Shown here one piece after another: positions 3,268 through 14,887 of a stretch of DNA of 16,991 nt; position 1 is the stretch's first letter, and each line of letters begins with the position of its first letter. The translations under genes and the position numbers were made by a program. The notes under the pieces are model-generated. The model searched no databases. It was given only the letters and a program-made list of their open reading frames with translations, and was not told the DNA's origin. Location of the stretch: positions 1 to 16,991 of IMG/VR virus record IMGVR_UViG_2703718832_000008, one strand, 5' to 3'. This DNA is from a virus. Its lineage: Duplodnaviria; Heunggongvirae; Uroviricota; Caudoviricetes.

Positions 3268-3552
3268 ATGCAAAATATCACCTTTACCCCGCCAAATCCT
3301 GAGCAGCGCCGCACCCTTTTAGAAGAGTACGGCTTTAAGTTCGACCGTCGAATTCGTGAAGAAGAATGTAGCGAGATCACCAGCCTTTCCCGTTCCAGCC
3401 GCTGGAAAATGGAGCAGCAAGGTCGATTCCCGCCACGCTGCCACTTTGGTCGTAACAGCTGCGCCTGGCTTCTTTCTGATGTGCTCTGGTGGGTTCGTAA
3501 TCCGCCTGCAGTAGAGAACGTCAATAACCCGTACAGCCGCAAATCTGCTTAA
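3268..3552 (+). CDS. alpA: AlpA-family phage transcriptional regulator (excisionase-like helix-turn-helix)
   Basis: 94 aa; region RIREEECSEITSLSRSSRWKMEQQGRFPPRCHFGRNSCAWLLSDVLWWV matches the AlpA/Vis-type helix-turn-helix as I recall it; GGAGG ribosome-binding site at 3259-3263. Confidence 0.88.
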   Translation: MQNITFTPPNPEQRRTLLEEYGFKFDRRIREEECSEITSLSRSSRWKMEQQGRFPPRCHFGRNSCAWLLSDVLWWVRNPPAVENVNNPYSRKSA

Positions 3553-5163: not shown

Positions 5164-5444
5164 CACGGCGCATGTAACAAAAGCAACGCCCCGGAGTGCG
5201 GGAACACTGCCGAGGCGTCTAACCACCAACGTTAATAGGAGTAACGCTATGGCTATGCCGCAGTGTAACCAAACTCATCCTAAAAATCGCGTATTTATCT
5301 TTTTGGCTTTAAATCGTGCCGACATGCAGAGCAGGCCACATCGTGAAGTTATTACCGCCGTCAGTGAGCGGGAAGCACGTAAGCTGCTAGTTGGCCGTTT
5401 TATTTTGGTTTTTGCAGGACGCTTACCAGCCAAGGAGATTTATC

Positions 5445-5954
5445 ATGGCTAAATTAACCAATAAATATTTAAAAGAAATTTTAGAATACAGCCCAGAATC
5501 TGGGGTGTTTATTTGGAAAGTTTGTCGTGGTACTACAAAGGCAGGGGATATAGCTGGCAGTATCAAAGTAAGAGGGTATTTAGATATTAAGATTAATAAG
5601 AAGCTATATAAGGCTCATAGGCTCGCATGGTTTTATATGTATGGAGTTTGGCCCGCTAATCTAATTGACCATATTAATGGTAATCGCAGTGATAATCGGT
5701 TGTGTAACTTGCGAGAGGCCACTCACAAAGAAAATTGCAGAAATCAAAGGATGTATAAAAATAACAAGTCAGGAGTAAAGGGAGTTAACTGGAATAAAAC
5801 AGGAAGAAAATGGCTGGCTGCGTGTGCTGTTGACGGGAAAAGATATCACCTAGGAATGTTTGAAGATATTTCAGAAGCAGAGAAAACTATTAAAGATTTT
5901 CGTGAGAAATATCATGGGGAATTCGCCAAGCATGAAGTGACCGGGGAGTTATAA
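5445..5954 (+). CDS. HNH endonuclease with C-terminal AP2 DNA-binding domain (homing-endonuclease-like)
   Basis: 169 aa from ATG 5445 (AAGGAG ribosome-binding site 7 nt upstream). HNH_3-type motif HRLAWFYMYGVWPANLIDHINGNRSDNRLCNLREAT, then AP2-like SGVKGVNWNKTGRKWLAACAVDGKRYHLGMFEDISEAEKT. Visibly AT-rich compared with downstream genes. Confidence 0.8.
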   Translation: MAKLTNKYLKEILEYSPESGVFIWKVCRGTTKAGDIAGSIKVRGYLDIKINKKLYKAHRLAWFYMYGVWPANLIDHINGNRSDNRLCNLREATHKENCRNQRMYKNNKSGVKGVNWNKTGRKWLAACAVDGKRYHLGMFEDISEAEKTIKDFREKYHGEFAKHEVTGEL

Positions 5955-6353: not shown

Positions 6354-6597
6354 CTTTGTAAGCGATGCGCGGCACGGGAAGCGCGGAGAGTTCAAATTGC
6401 CGCTGTTTTGTGAACTGACTGCAGAAGGGCAGAGTCACATCACCTTTGCCCTAAAGTTTGCCCCCGAGTCTGTGGCTGTGTTCCATCCCGATTCGGGAGA
6501 AATATCTCACTGGCTCAGCCGCGGAAACGAGATTATCGACATTTACGGTTGCTATGCCGTCTTTCCTCGCAATGGCATTAGGGAGGAACAGCAATGA
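6343..6597 (+). CDS. Hypothetical small protein (84 aa, GTG start)
   Basis: GTG at 6343 preceded by GGGAGG 6 nt upstream; overlaps the previous stop and ends in an ATGA overlap with the primase start. The ORF-track start at 6253 would run inside the previous gene and has no ribosome-binding site. Confidence 0.45.
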   Translation: MQNDFVSDARHGKRGEFKLPLFCELTAEGQSHITFALKFAPESVAVFHPDSGEISHWLSRGNEIIDIYGCYAVFPRNGIREEQQ

Positions 6598-9284
6598 GCC
6601 GCGCAATTGAGATTATCCGTGAAGTTAAGCGCCGAGCTGCCGGAAGCTGGGAAAGCCTACTTCCTCAGTGCGGGGTGACGGTTCCGCCGAAAGGCCGTCA
6701 CGGCCCATGCGCCATCTGTGGTGGATCTGACCGATTTCACTACATTGACGACCACGGCGGCGGCGAGTGGCATTGTCGCCAGTGTGACGAGCCAAATCAC
6801 GGCGACGGTCTGGATCTCATTGCCAGATCTCAGGGCATTACCATAACCGCTGCGGCGCAGAAAGTATCCTCTGTGCTGGGTGTTGATGCCCGGACACCGG
6901 AACCGAAGCCAGCCAGAGAGAAGCCTCAGACGGATATCGCCGGGAAAGTTGCGGCGCTGGTTGCTAAAGCCTCTCCGGGGCAGTCTGCTTACCTTGCATC
7001 AAAGGGGCTTCAATGCCCCTTCCCGATGCTGTCCGATGGGTCGCTGCTGCTGGTGCTGAAAAACGGTGCTGGCGCGACGACAGGCGCACAGGTGATTAAG
7101 CCAGATGGCAGTAAGCGGCTGGTGGCCGGAACGGTAAAGAAAGGCTCTTTTTGCGTGGTTAATTCCGGTGAAACGCCGGAGACGGTGATTATCGCCGAAG
7201 GACTGGCAACGGCGCTTTCGGTTCAGCAGTTTCGCCCAGATGCGACAATTATCACAGCGATTGACGCCGGGAATTTGCTGTCAGTTGCGCAGGTGATGCG
7301 ACAGCGTTACCCGGATGCGCAGATCATCATCGCCGCAGATAACGATATTAAGCCTGGCGAACCAAACACGGGTAAATCAGCCGCAGAAAAAACCGCTAAA
7401 GCTGTCTCTGGCTGGGTAGCTTTACCTCAGTCTGAGGAAAAGGCCGACTGGAATGATTTTCACCAGCAACACGGGCTGGAAGCAGCCGCAGCAGCATTTA
7501 ATGATTCGATGTACCAGCCGGAGGGCGAAAAGGTGGTGGTAAAACTTAAGTCTATTGACGGCGGTAAAAAAGAGCAAAAATCAGCTCTGCAAGGTGACGA
7601 ACTGAAACCACGCGTGGAGAGCCGTAACGATGGCTTGTACTGGATTACGCCAAAGGTGGACAAGGACAGCGGAGAAATCATCAATAACGAAGCGTGGCTT
7701 TGTTCGCCTCTTGAGGTAGTTGGTTCAGGTAGTGACGGGGCAGAACGCTATCTTGTTTTGCGCTGGCGTTCGCCGCGTGGCCACGAAGATATTACCAGGG
7801 CGATCCCTTGCGCTGATGTTGGAGAGCGTGAGGGATGGCGCTCACTTAAAGCTGGAGGGGTTAACGTGACCACTAAAAACACCTTTCGTGCCATTCTGGC
7901 CGATTGGCTGCAGCAGTGTGGATCTGGTCAGGAATGGATTATCACTCATACCACTGGCTGGCATAATGGGGCATATATCATGCCTGATGGCGAAGTTATT
8001 GGTGATCCAGAGACACCCATTCTCTTTAATGGTCGCAGCGCTGCATCTTCCGGTTATGCCGTTTCTGGTACGGCTGAGGGCTGGCGGGATTCAGTGGCTT
8101 ATCTGGCCGGTGGCAACCCATCAATGATGCTGGGAGTGGCGGCGGCATTATCCGCGCCGCTTATTGGGCTGGTGGGTGCTGATGGTTTCGGTGTCCACTT
8201 GTTCGAGCAGTCGAGCGCCGGTAAGACCACTACAGCTAATATTGCGAGCAGTCTGTGGGGAGAGCCGGATGCTCTGCGCCTAACGTGGTACGGTACTGCG
8301 CTTGGTATCGCTAACGAAGCGGAGGCGCATAACGACAGTCTGTTACCGCTGGATGAAGTGGGGCAGGGGAGCAGCGCCAAAGACGTTGCCACTTCGGCAT
8401 ACACCTTGTTTAACGGTGCTGGAAAGCTGCAGGGAGCCAAAGAGGGCGGCAATCGGGAGTTGAAACGTTGGCGCACTGTAGCAATCAGTACCGGGGAAAT
8501 GGATATCGAGACGTTTCTTTCTGCTGGTGGGCTAAAAGTTAAGGCAGGCCAGTTGGTTCGCCTGCTGAATATCCCTATGGAGAAATCGACGGCCTTTCAT
8601 GGCCTGCAGAACGGCAAGGCTCATGCTGATGCACTGAAGCAGGCATGGATTGAAAATCACGGTGCAGCGGGCCGAGAGTGGGTTAAATGGTTGGCGGCTC
8701 ACCAGAAGGAAGCTAAACAGGCCGTACATGACGCCCAGACGCGCTGGCGCGGACTCATTCCGGCTGATTATGGCGAGCAGGTGCACCGCGTGGCAGAACG
8801 CTTTGCAATCCTTGAAGCTGCGCTGGTGACTGGTGCATCAATCACCGGATGGGATGAACAGGCCAGCCGTGATGCTATCCAGCATAGCTTTAATGCCTGG
8901 GTGAAAGAGTTCGGAACGGGAAATAAAGAGCACCAGCAGATCATCGAGCAGTGCGAGGCGTTTCTTAATGCTTATGGTCTGAGCCGGTTCGCCCCTTTGC
9001 CTTATGATCCTGCAAGCCTGCCAATCAGTAATCTTGCCGGGTATCGTAAGCGTAAGAGCAACCATGATGATGCGCCCATGGTGTTCTATACATTCCCTGC
9101 AACGTTTGAGAAGGAGATAGCGCAGGGATTTAATGCTAGGCAGTTTGCCCGTGCGCTTGCCGCTGCCGGTTTGCTCTCTGAGCCATCAAGTGGGAGAGGA
9201 TATCAACAGAAATCACCGCGAATTGATGGGCGCCAAATCAACGTTTATGTACTTCAACAAGTTGCAGAAGAAGGGGCGGAATAA
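6594..9284 (+). CDS. Primase-helicase (zinc-ribbon + TOPRIM primase + P-loop NTPase domains)
   Basis: 896 aa. N-terminal Cys/His cluster (CAICGG...HCRQC); TOPRIM-like IIAEGLATALS and IIAADND; Walker A SSAGKTT and Walker B-like LLPLDEV in the C-terminal half. Sits immediately upstream of the iteron origin. Confidence 0.9.
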   Translation: MSRAIEIIREVKRRAAGSWESLLPQCGVTVPPKGRHGPCAICGGSDRFHYIDDHGGGEWHCRQCDEPNHGDGLDLIARSQGITITAAAQKVSSVLGVDARTPEPKPAREKPQTDIAGKVAALVAKASPGQSAYLASKGLQCPFPMLSDGSLLLVLKNGAGATTGAQVIKPDGSKRLVAGTVKKGSFCVVNSGETPETVIIAEGLATALSVQQFRPDATIITAIDAGNLLSVAQVMRQRYPDAQIIIAADNDIKPGEPNTGKSAAEKTAKAVSGWVALPQSEEKADWNDFHQQHGLEAAAAAFNDSMYQPEGEKVVVKLKSIDGGKKEQKSALQGDELKPRVESRNDGLYWITPKVDKDSGEIINNEAWLCSPLEVVGSGSDGAERYLVLRWRSPRGHEDITRAIPCADVGEREGWRSLKAGGVNVTTKNTFRAILADWLQQCGSGQEWIITHTTGWHNGAYIMPDGEVIGDPETPILFNGRSAASSGYAVSGTAEGWRDSVAYLAGGNPSMMLGVAAALSAPLIGLVGADGFGVHLFEQSSAGKTTTANIASSLWGEPDALRLTWYGTALGIANEAEAHNDSLLPLDEVGQGSSAKDVATSAYTLFNGAGKLQGAKEGGNRELKRWRTVAISTGEMDIETFLSAGGLKVKAGQLVRLLNIPMEKSTAFHGLQNGKAHADALKQAWIENHGAAGREWVKWLAAHQKEAKQAVHDAQTRWRGLIPADYGEQVHRVAERFAILEAALVTGASITGWDEQASRDAIQHSFNAWVKEFGTGNKEHQQIIEQCEAFLNAYGLSRFAPLPYDPASLPISNLAGYRKRKSNHDDAPMVFYTFPATFEKEIAQGFNARQFARALAAAGLLSEPSSGRGYQQKSPRIDGRQINVYVLQQVAEEGAE

Positions 9285-9308
9285 AATACACATGTGAGGA
9301 TTGTTATT

Positions 9309-9601
9309 GTTGGTTCAGTTGGTTCAATGATTGTTAATTACATTCATGTTACTGTTTTACATAGGGTTTATGTCTAATAATTGAACCAACACTGAACCAA
9401 CAAACGGCTATTTTGAACCAACATGTTCCGCTATTGAACCAACCCCCTTTTCTGGCTGGCCTGTAAATATTTGCCACTGAACCAACATAAAAATAGCATT
9501 TGTTGGTTCAAAAAGGGGCTTTGTTAGTTCACTTAATGAAAATAATGCCTTTAAAAACAATAATCTTTACAAATTGAACCAACTGAACTGACTGAACCAA
9601 C
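9309..9601. repeat. Replication origin: iteron array of TGAACCAAC (about 7 direct and 3 inverted copies) plus AT-rich stretch
   Basis: Direct copies at 9382-9390, 9393-9401, 9414-9422, 9435-9443, 9478-9486, 9575-9583 and 9593-9601; inverted copies GTTGGTTCA at 9310-9318, 9319-9327 and 9502-9510; AT-rich segment 9538-9573. Located directly downstream of the primase-helicase gene. Confidence 0.75.
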
Positions 9602-9638
9602 ATAGTTTTGCATCTATACACAAAAAATAGAGGATGTT

Positions 9639-9941
9639 ATGGACAAAAAAAGCAGTGATGACCTGGTATATTCGAAGGTGCTGATCCAGAAAGTGGTTGA
9701 GCACAAAGATATGTTTGGGGTTCCAGACAGCAAAACGGATTTGCAGCTTATGCCGCTTAGCGAATACCGGGAACTGGTGAAGCGAGAAGCTTTCTTTTTT
9801 GTGGATCACAATGGTTTCCTGCGCCATCAATTTTCTGGTGATGTTATGGCTGCCAGCAAAGAACAACTGGATATCCTTATCGGCGAATTGAAAGCGAAGC
9901 GTGAGCTGCTTGATGATGCTCTGGATTGCGCTAAGGAATAA
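9639..9941 (+). CDS. Hypothetical protein (100 aa) downstream of the origin
   Basis: ORF with GAGGA-like ribosome-binding site; acidic, helical-looking C-terminus; no recognisable family by eye. Confidence 0.5.
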   Translation: MDKKSSDDLVYSKVLIQKVVEHKDMFGVPDSKTDLQLMPLSEYRELVKREAFFFVDHNGFLRHQFSGDVMAASKEQLDILIGELKAKRELLDDALDCAKE

Positions 9942-9978: not shown

Positions 9979-10003
9979 ACCCCTGTCTCTGATGGGGGTT
10001 TTC
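9979..10003 (+). terminator. Weak intrinsic terminator candidate
   Basis: CCCC/GGGG stem with 10-nt loop followed by TTTTCTTT, about 40 nt after the preceding stop codon. Confidence 0.3.
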
Positions 10004-13524: not shown

Positions 13525-13814
13525 CAGCAGAAATCACCCTGGAAGAAGCAAAGCTGCATTGCCGTATTGATGATGATTATGAAGACACGCTGATACAGGC
13601 GTACATCGATGCGGCGCTGGAGGTTTGCCAGAAGCATATCGGCAAGCGGTTTGATAACGGGCTGGAGTTTACGCCAGCTATCAAGATTGGCTGTCTGATG
13701 TACGTATCTCAGCTGTACGAGTACCGCACGATGATTGGTGATACCGACGCCAAAGAGATACCGATGGCTGTCTCTGCGTTGTGGTCTGTCTATCGTGATG
13801 TGGGGGTGTACTGA
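13521..13814 (+). CDS. gp6-like head-tail connector protein
   Basis: 97 aa; N-terminus ITLEEAKLHCRIDDDYEDTLIQAYIDAA is the usual signature of gp6-like connector proteins; ATGA overlap upstream. Confidence 0.85.
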   Translation: MTAEITLEEAKLHCRIDDDYEDTLIQAYIDAALEVCQKHIGKRFDNGLEFTPAIKIGCLMYVSQLYEYRTMIGDTDAKEIPMAVSALWSVYRDVGVY

Positions 13815-14257
13815 TGCCGTGGCAACCACTACGCCGGTGCAATGAGCCGGGATGTAATAAACGGGTGAAGTCTGGCAAGTGTGACGAGCATAAGCGGGAT
13901 GCCCGCCGACAAAGCGACAGCCGAAGAGGTACGCGAACAGAGCGTGGTTACTCCAACCGCTGGGGCGAATACCGTCGTCATTTTCTAAAAGCTAATCCGC
14001 TGTGTGTCCATTGTCTCAAGGCTGGCGTCTATGCATCGGCAACTATCGTCGATCACATCATCCCTATCGAGGGTGAAGCTGATGTGCTGTTCTGGCCCGC
14101 CAGTAATCACCAGTCGTTATGCGCTGCCTGTCATGGACGGAAGACAACCACAACAGACCCGGTGACGAAGCAGCAGCGTAAAGCCGGTAAGTTCCGCGAG
14201 CAGGAAGAAGCAGCACGTCATCGCACCGACTGGATCTATGAGGCAAACAATGACTGA
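13814..14257 (+). CDS. HNH endonuclease associated with the terminase
   Basis: 147 aa; Cys-rich N-terminus, HNH motif DHIIPIEGEAD...NHQSLCAACH; located directly upstream of terS as in cos-type HK97-like packaging modules. Confidence 0.9.
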   Translation: MPWQPLRRCNEPGCNKRVKSGKCDEHKRDARRQSDSRRGTRTERGYSNRWGEYRRHFLKANPLCVHCLKAGVYASATIVDHIIPIEGEADVLFWPASNHQSLCAACHGRKTTTTDPVTKQQRKAGKFREQEEAARHRTDWIYEANND

Positions 14258-14530: not shown

Positions 14531-14887
14531 ATGGCAAGACCACCCAAACCGCCCGCCTACCTTGATGAAATCGCGGCGCAGCAGTGGAAAGCAAAGGCGA
14601 AGCAGCTGGCGGAGCGCGGTGATCTGACGCCTGCCGACTGGAACAACCTTGAGCTGTATTGCGTCAATTACTCGATGTACCGCAAAGCCGTGGAAGACCT
14701 TGCCACGCGGGGATTCAGCATAGTGAACAGCCAGGGCGGTGAGAGCCGTAACCCGGCACTGAGCGCAAAAGCGGATGCCGAAAAAATTCTCATAAAAATG
14801 TCGTCGCTGCTGGGCTTTGATCCGGTAAGCCGCCGCCGTAATCCGGTAGAAACGGAAGAGGAGGACGAGCTTGACCGTCTGGAATGA
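14531..14887 (+). CDS. terS: Terminase small subunit, P27 family
   Basis: 118 aa; N-terminus MARPPKPPAYLDEIAAQQWK and overall size match P27-family small terminases. Confidence 0.85.
   Translation: MARPPKPPAYLDEIAAQQWKAKAKQLAERGDLTPADWNNLELYCVNYSMYRKAVEDLATRGFSIVNSQGGESRNPALSAKADAEKILIKMSSLLGFDPVSRRRNPVETEEEDELDRLE

Follow-up and report, generated by a model that had tools for sequence, protein, structure and literature searches.

A two-module repeat array behind the primase-helicase gene of a capsid-forming island is a probable replication origin whose repeat word tracks the C-terminus of the initiator

The stretch of DNA analysed here (the window, 16,991 bp) is, by its gene content, a capsid-forming phage-inducible chromosomal island (cf-PICI) lying between yhdJ and fis. 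Its int, alpA and pri-rep genes are co-directional, AntA-like and HNH proteins are also encoded, and Pfam searches recovered the island's own capsid, protease, portal, connector, HNH, TerS and TerL and no tail genes. The same gene content has been described for cf-PICIs, whose own DNA is packaged by their own TerS, TerL and HNH (bioRxiv 10.1101/2022.09.08.507074); that paper describes no origin. The two HNH endonuclease genes lie at 5391-5954 (HNH_3, in the accessory region upstream of pri-rep) and at 13814-14257 (in the packaging module, by terS). Immediately 3′ of pri-rep lies an array of short repeats, followed in order by a 100-aa ORF (orf100) and the genes for HK97-type capsid, protease, portal, head-closure, connector, HNH, TerS and TerL. 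The features outside the array are as follows:

1156-2379: tyrosine integrase (Pfam and gene calls)
3268-3552: AlpA (Pfam and gene calls)
6594-9284, + strand: pri-rep, 896 aa, predicted primase-helicase-initiator
6693-6812 (aa 34-73), + strand: Zn-ribbon of Pri-Rep (Zn_Ribbon_Prim, Pfam)
7185-7475 (aa 198-294), + strand: Toprim domain (Toprim_3, Pfam)
7626-8465 (aa 345-624), + strand: DUF927 AAA+ helicase (Pfam)
8988-9260 (aa ~799-889), + strand: predicted C-terminal winged-helix domain, proposed repeat binder (structure model)
9171-9263 (aa 860-890), + strand: predicted wing hairpin SEPSSGRGYQQKSPRIDGRQINVYVLQ, the segment that best tracks repeat class
9639-9941, + strand: orf100, 100 aa, first gene past the array and outside the proposed origin
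14531-14887: terS, about 5 kb from the repeat cluster

A preliminary description of this DNA had named the ORF upstream of the repeats a primase-helicase, and its Zn-ribbon, Toprim and DUF927 domains together with its homology to SaPI Rep bear this out. Residues 455-793 matched the PDB sequence 8tch ('Pathogenicity island protein', E 6e-15), with the SCCmec Cch helicase (5dgk) as a further match; the helicase core is, by sequence homology, a relative of the solved SaPI Rep initiator-helicase. Pfam found no D5_N or Pox_D5 domain in the protein. The C-terminal domain gave no sequence-level match to Pfam or the PDB, even with a 42-sequence profile. A first AlphaFold model of aa 681-896, made with 25 close homologues, had low confidence over the last 110 residues, and the model used here is a second one, built with more diverse fragments. 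In this model the C-terminal domain has a predicted winged-helix fold whose best structural match is the same SaPI Rep, the Foldseek matches of the domain being weak, and aa 860-890 form a β-hairpin wing.

The exact Pri-Rep protein occurs in 263 blocks of a public assembly collection, with source records from E. coli, Citrobacter, Enterobacter and Klebsiella, and homologues number about 1800 in all. The window itself is contained in an ENA metagenome scaffold (L083) with the identical locus, including the yhdJ and fis flanks, AlpA, Terminase_4 and TerL. In the at least eight contexts that carry the exact Pri-Rep (L083-L090), the accessory genes between alpA and pri-rep differ, and the capsid module is missing from L084; the 354 bp at 9285-9638 are 100% identical in eight. 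Since the exact Pri-Rep and an identical candidate origin recur in differing contexts, the replication module appears to be common to otherwise different fis-site islands.

Past the pri-rep stop codon (9284), the 9-mer TGAACCAAC is found in seven exact copies on the + strand (9382, 9393, 9414, 9435, 9478, 9575 and 9593) and in three on the - strand (9309, 9318 and 9502). This exact-match search reproduced precisely the seven direct and three inverted copies in about 300 bp reported before, and the placement just downstream of the primase-helicase was likewise correct, with the first repeat 25 bp after the stop. Two degenerate copies complete the array (9309-9601; 10 exact and two degenerate copies): an inverted one at 9523, TGAACTAAC, with one mismatch to TGAACCAAC and exact in the relatives L001 and L002, and a direct one at 9584, TGAACTGAC, with two mismatches and lying between two exact copies. 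Chance would supply about 0.002 exact copies in 300 bp on both strands (2 x 303 / 4^9). Matches with at most one mismatch numbered 14 across the window compared with 3.8 +/- 2.0 in shuffled sequence, and none of the 200 shuffles reached 14. Outside the array, the whole 16,991-bp window holds a single exact copy, on the - strand at 7719-7727 within the primase-helicase ORF, and only L044 has a copy at the matching relative position. Because other same-class loci have no copy there, this stray copy is probably a coincidence of coding sequence.

The array consists of two modules of the same design, A (9309-9443) and B (9502-9601), with a lone repeat at 9478 between them:

9309-9326, - strand: left set of module A, two contiguous inverted repeats, GTTGGTTCA GTTGGTTCA
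9327-9381, no strand: AT-rich stretch 1, GC about 27%, proposed unwinding element of module A
9382-9443, + strand: right set of module A, four direct repeats at 9382, 9393, 9414 and 9435, spaced 11, 21 and 21 bp
9478-9486, + strand: single direct repeat between the modules, conserved in L001 and L002
9502-9531, - strand: left set of module B, inverted repeats at 9502 (exact) and 9523 (TGAACTAAC)
9532-9574, no strand: AT-rich stretch 2, GC about 22%, least stable DNA of the proposed origin region
9575-9601, + strand: right set of module B, three contiguous direct 9-mers, exact at 9575 and 9593 and degenerate (TGAACTGAC) at 9584

In both modules, opposite-facing sets with at least two repeats per side flank an AT-rich stretch (9309/9318 versus 9382-9443 in A; 9502/9523 versus 9575-9601 in B). 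The start-to-start distances are 9, 11, 21 and 21 bp and then 21, 9 and 9 bp, which corresponds to contiguous 9-mers or to about one or two helical turns, and the same stop-codon offsets were found again in dozens of related elements. The spacing, previously called irregular, is thus ordered, and where a single adjacent AT-rich stretch had been noted the AT-richness is real but divides into two stretches, each between inverted and direct sets. In nearest-neighbour calculations the 41-mers of stretch 1 have a duplex stability of -45 to -46 kcal/mol and stretch 2 one of -43 to -45 kcal/mol, compared with a window mean of -56.9 +/- 4.6 kcal/mol. Both stretches are predicted to lie 2.5-3 SD below the mean stability of the window, neither being the least stable DNA of the whole window in this profile.

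Within 9285-9640 we found no DnaA box (TTWTNCACA), IHF site or GATC, and one Fis-like match at 9372; an Rfam search of the whole window returned no RNA family. Of 17 same-class elements, 70-90% conserve three non-repeat blocks, which lie at 9352-9360 (CTGTTTTA), 9452-9461 (CTGGCTGGCC) and 9564-9574 (TCTTTACAAAT). The DnaA, IHF and GATC motifs do not match these blocks, which could be candidate host-factor or primase start sites.

In a three-way alignment with the E. coli relatives L001 and L002 every repeat is in place, and the spacers contain substitutions and a 16-bp indel. Three minus-strand ORFs that run over the repeats (9349-9477, 9408-9560 and 9567-9866) were rejected as genes because the spacers diverge freely and carry this indel. 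The left set of module A is invariant in both relatives, and it is kept at offsets 25 and 34 in most others. Across 17 TGAACCAAC-class elements, repeat columns were 89.5% identical to the window as opposed to 52.9% for all other columns (Mann-Whitney p 3e-30).

To assess generality we used a survey that comprised one scan with one genome per species and gave 80 loci that encode relatives, mostly from Enterobacterales, 78 of them with enough downstream sequence. Some 9-mer was repeated at least three times in the 350 bp past the stop codon in 73/78 loci, and at least four times in 69/78 loci versus 14/2042 control windows. The preliminary description had held that its reading would fall if the repeats were missing from homologous islands; they follow the gene in these 73 loci, and none was found after it in the remaining five. 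Offsets from the stop codon vary little, with a first part at about 25-, 34-, (43-), then 98+, 109+, 130+, (151+), and a second part at about 194+, 218-, 239-, then 291+, 300+, 309+ (signs give orientation). About 20 loci carry the left module alone, in which an AT-rich stretch lies between three inverted and three direct repeats. The layout is retained despite entirely different downstream genes, including those of L001, L084 and L095. What varies is the word itself, which falls into about 14 classes at these conserved offsets; the offsets 98, 109, 130 and 151 of the right set of module A, for example, recur in relatives with other words. The TGAACCAAC class is represented by 41 loci. The other words are TGAACCGAC, TGAGACAAC, TAACCCGT, TGGGAyAAG, TGACACACT, TAACCCAC and TGAACCACG, together with AAACCGACC, TGGGACAAC, TAACCGACC, TACCCGACC, TGTGACCGG and TGAACCCA.

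Several loci stand apart. In L073 and L050 the 3′ end of the pri-rep homologue is frameshifted or scrambled, yet full repeat arrays are present; these may be decaying elements or sequencing errors. L011 (Yersinia pekkanenii) has three TGAACCAAC clusters (2139-2406, 6721-6988 and 7902-8199) and an ORF at 7213-7875 (220 aa, with an ambiguous base) whose last 82 aa are 94% identical to the winged-helix end of Pri-Rep; one source names the protein cluster of this ORF an HNH endonuclease domain protein, and our Pfam search found no HNH in it. Either L011 carries a duplicated 'C-terminus + origin' cassette or its assembly is at fault. Two genomes each hold two elements of this initiator family, Serratia sp. 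H1w (L007 and L043) and Escherichia sp. MOD1-EC7003 (L009 and L075); in one of these genomes the two elements share a repeat word and in the other the words differ, which bears on cross-activation or incompatibility between co-resident satellites.

We compared the word classes with the Pri-Rep sequences of the same loci. In this comparison, which is a correlation only, word class goes with the final ~40-100 residues of Pri-Rep and not with the helicase core. Pairwise identity separated same-class from different-class pairs with an AUC of 0.98 at aa 860-890 and of 0.78 in the helicase core, and in sliding windows the AUC was 0.96-0.98 over aa 841-890 versus 0.66-0.81 along the helicase. When pairs were matched at a core identity of 0.85, identity over aa 860-890 was 0.79 for same-class and 0.54 for different-class pairs. 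After regression on core identity, none of 2000 label permutations reached the observed residual effect of class, and the reverse of this test gave no effect. Of the 25 columns that discriminate best between classes, 13 fall within aa 860-896, the strongest being P875, S874, Q871, V884 and R880, and the residues that track class would be those to swap for re-targeting an initiator. In the alignment, the wing motif QRKSPRI goes with TGAACCAAC, QGRV-RE with TGAGACAAC, TRKSLRI with TGAACCGAC and KKALKKM with TAACCC words; TGAGACAAC-class Pri-Reps include those of L021 and L024, and SGRGYQGRVREDGRQIRVYVL is the counterpart of aa 860-890 in this class. The earlier suggestion that the repeats define replicon specificity is supported by this comparison, with about 14 words at the same positions and a class that follows the predicted C-terminal winged-helix domain.

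Two relatives combine parts of the protein differently. Over aa 360-780 the L082 initiator agrees with the window protein at 93-100% identity and then continues with a different C-terminus, its repeats are TAACCCAC, and the DNA identity breaks near nt 8960, at the start of the part encoding the winged helix; judged by this pattern, L082 is a natural recombinant. Conversely, the initiator of the E. coli cf-PICI L002, a DUF927 protein of 711 aa without Zn-ribbon or Toprim, has an unrelated N-terminus, is 91% identical in the helicase and C-terminal domain, and is accompanied by the same repeats. Since L002 shares the repeats despite its unrelated N-terminus, the N-terminal primase is unlikely to be the reader of the word. 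Over its first 130 aa (7898-8302), the L002 protein shares 44% identity (E 7e-32) with the N-terminal end of the otherwise unrelated D5-type Pri-Rep of EcCICFT073 (L093:32242-33996), a likeness which suggests that PICI initiators have a mosaic make-up of N-terminal module, helicase and winged-helix domain.

We further propose, and give even chances of being right, that the last ~100 codons of pri-rep and the origin form one exchangeable specificity cassette. The wing hairpin QQKSPRIDGRQINV (aa ~865-885), rather than the usual recognition helix, would read the 9-bp word, and among satellites and prophage-like elements of enterobacteria at least 14 natural, mutually orthogonal wing/word pairs (KSPRI with TGAACCAAC, GRV-RE with TGAGACAAC and KKALKKM with TAACCC, for example) would recombine onto near-identical helicase cores. 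If this is true, the recognition code would be readable and a set of orthogonal replicons would be at hand.

Collectively, we consider 9309-9601 to be, very probably, the replication origin of the cf-PICI between yhdJ and fis, read by the C-terminal domain of Pri-Rep. The earlier reading of an origin beside its initiator holds in its computable parts, namely the homology of the initiator, the repeats 25 bp past its stop codon and the AT-rich DNA that they flank. In the mechanism that we envisage, the winged-helix domain would bind the 9-bp TGAACCAAC repeats so that Pri-Rep hexamers could form at both flanks of the AT-rich DNA, open the duplex and self-load, as a double hexamer, to serve as the replicative helicase; the N-terminal primase domain would lay primers for extension by the host polymerase. 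Module B might act as a second origin or as an enhancer, and which origin a given initiator fires would be decided by the repeat word and the winged-helix wing in combination. The absence of DnaA box, IHF site and GATC from 9285-9640 fits a self-loading initiator of this kind and counts against an origin of the plasmid RepA/DnaA type.

Closed circular records of related elements bear on the autonomy of such islands. The finished genome of K. pneumoniae FDAARGOS_1323 includes a closed 15,995-bp circle, 'plasmid unnamed2', that has no plasmid replicon type in PLSDB and comprises an entire related cf-PICI; 11 exact TGAACCAAC copies follow immediately after the DUF927 gene of this island. An E. 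coli 'plasmid' of 12 kb is likewise a PICI in circular form and carries a TOPRIM-DUF927 gene. The closed 16-kb circle is circumstantial support for island autonomy, and it could also reflect excision without replication. Two records filed as small non-mobilizable plasmids, L094 (NZ_CP069874.1) and L095 (NZ_CP148430.1), are complete circular satellites, a cf-PICI of 16 kb and a PICI of 12 kb, that both encode an integrase and a DUF927 initiator; excised islands may have been misfiled in records of this type. L096, a small plasmid with a distant DUF927 gene, was set aside as uninformative on DUF927 replicons because it also encodes Rop, suggesting a ColE1-type replicon.

Other functions could be imagined for an array at this position. 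That the repeats are operators for orf100 and the capsid operon, bound by Pri-Rep or another island regulator, with no origin involved, strikes us as improbable. Module B does lie immediately ahead of orf100, a weak sigma-70-like match at 9536-9564 within AT-rich stretch 2 would have the repeats at 9575-9601 cover the predicted transcription start, and module B may have a separate role since it is missing in ~20 relatives. However, promoter matches are at background (three found versus 2.3 +/- 1.6 in shuffled sequence), the word tracks the C-terminus of the helicase-initiator and not any regulator or downstream gene, the layout survives the exchange of all downstream genes in L001, L084 and L095, and in the homologous SaPI system this layout serves as an origin (PMC9371898). 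A combination of both functions, with Pri-Rep binding secondarily affecting orf100 transcription, is possible and compatible with the origin reading. The orf100 gene was called in 8/8 contexts and has no Pfam match, and its similarity is independent of repeat class, at 70% and 68% in L052 and L073 (other words) versus 48% in L003 (same word). A terminator-like hairpin with a T-run lies past it at 9979-9999, ahead of the capsid gene, and suggests that orf100 is transcribed apart from the packaging operon. We regard as highly improbable a packaging site (cos or pac) bound by the small terminase of the island. Such a site must exist somewhere in the island because cf-PICIs package their own DNA (bioRxiv 10.1101/2022.09.08.507074), and repeated words are frequent in terminase sites, but the cluster lies 5 kb from terS and directly past pri-rep, L001, L084 and L095 have the same repeats and layout without a nearby capsid/terminase module, and the word co-varies with the Pri-Rep C-terminus; the last two points led us to reject the terminase-site class for this array.

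A different division of the array is conceivable but, in our judgement, rather unlikely: module A (9309-9443) alone would be the origin, and module B, taken here as 9478-9601, would be a crr-like cis enhancer or a copy-control ('handcuffing') array that titrates Pri-Rep. The ~20 loci with the left module only make module A appear sufficient, and in P4 there is a precedent for a second repeat-bearing region, crr, besides ori. Against this, module B has the same internal design and includes the region's least stable DNA, so that it might fire just as well. Finally, it is hardly credible that the repeats are a functionless product of chance or a decaying simple repeat, with 10 exact copies found where ~0.002 are expected; conservation already refutes this, the repeat columns being 90% conserved versus 53% for spacers, the region being 100% identical in eight contexts and the layout following the gene in 73/78 loci.

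The origin reading fixes where and how the island would start copying once a helper phage wakes it, and thereby the cis element that cf-PICIs need for amplification before packaging; cf-PICIs with identical sequences occur in several enterobacterial genera. Matched variants of C-terminus and word would also predict which co-resident satellites cross-activate or compete for origins.

Among known systems, iteron plasmids (pPS10, RK2, R6K and F, with the initiators RepA, TrfA and pi) resemble the window in that initiator-binding words adjoin an AT-rich unwinding element and in that the word defines replicon specificity. Their iterons are ~17-22 bp long and direct, whereas the repeats of the window are 9 bp and occur in both orientations; their winged-helix initiators lack helicase activity and depend on DnaA and DnaB of the host, whereas the window initiator itself carries Toprim and AAA+ helicase domains. 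Given the bidirectional 9-bp repeats, the helicase-type initiator and the absence of a DnaA box in 9285-9640, we rejected this class, so that the 'iteron-type' label of the preliminary description stands in the SaPI/PICI sense of a self-loading helicase-initiator and not in the plasmid RepA/DnaA sense. SCCmec Cch and other MCM-like self-loading helicases belong to a type of element that differs from the window island, and we know of no repeat-type origin for Cch.

Like the window island, P4 is a satellite of enterobacterial phages. Its alpha protein unites primase, helicase and a C-terminal origin-binding domain in one polypeptide and binds short repeats, and P4 replication needs the second repeat-bearing region, crr, besides ori. 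Alpha is a D5-like SF3 helicase, whereas the window Pri-Rep is a DUF927 protein without a D5 or Pox_D5 match, and the two repeat regions of P4 lie ~4.5 kb apart, as opposed to one cluster and one stray copy in the window; we therefore did not assign the array to the P4 ori/crr class. Both alpha and crr are mentioned in PMC6092414.

The closest correspondence is with SaPIs. According to PMC9371898 (citing Ubeda 2007, 2012), the SaPI origin lies immediately downstream of rep and comprises 6-12 short repeats around an AT-rich centre, with two or more on each side facing in opposite directions, and SaPI Rep is a self-loading helicase whose C-terminal winged-helix domain binds the repeats; SaPIbov1, SaPI1 and SaPI5 are given there as examples with Rep or Pri-Rep initiators (Ubeda et al. 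2007, 2012). The window matches in position, repeat number, flanked AT-rich DNA and an AAA+ initiator with a predicted winged helix. It differs in that its repeats are 9 bp (10 bp with a flanking A) rather than 5-6 bp (PMC9371898) and in having two repeat/AT modules rather than one, and, unlike SaPIs, it is a capsid-forming island of a Gram-negative host. Pri-Rep and SaPI Rep have low sequence identity, and their C-terminal domains are alike by modelled fold only.

Fillol-Salom et al. (2018, PMC6092414) describe Gram-negative PICIs as organised in this way 3′ of pri-rep, and for EcCICFT073, the only Gram-negative PICI origin with an experimental test, plasmid maintenance dependent on Pri-Rep and ori was demonstrated (PMC6092414). 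We located EcCICFT073 at L093:27931-38655. Both it and the window are PICIs with an origin, or candidate origin, just past pri-rep and two oppositely oriented repeat sets. The EcCICFT073 repeats, CTGTCTACC / GGTAGATAG, are unlike TGAACCAAC, and its Pri-Rep is a D5_N/DUF5906/Pox_D5 protein similar to that of the window only around the P-loop (25% over 114 aa). Since initiator and repeats both differ, the window would represent the counterpart origin for a DUF927-type, SaPI Rep-related initiator. Its layout and logic are already published for related islands and the picture of island replication is unchanged; what is added here is a map, drawn from aligned loci, of ~14 repeat/wing specificity classes and of a recombination boundary, which together make specificity swaps directly testable.
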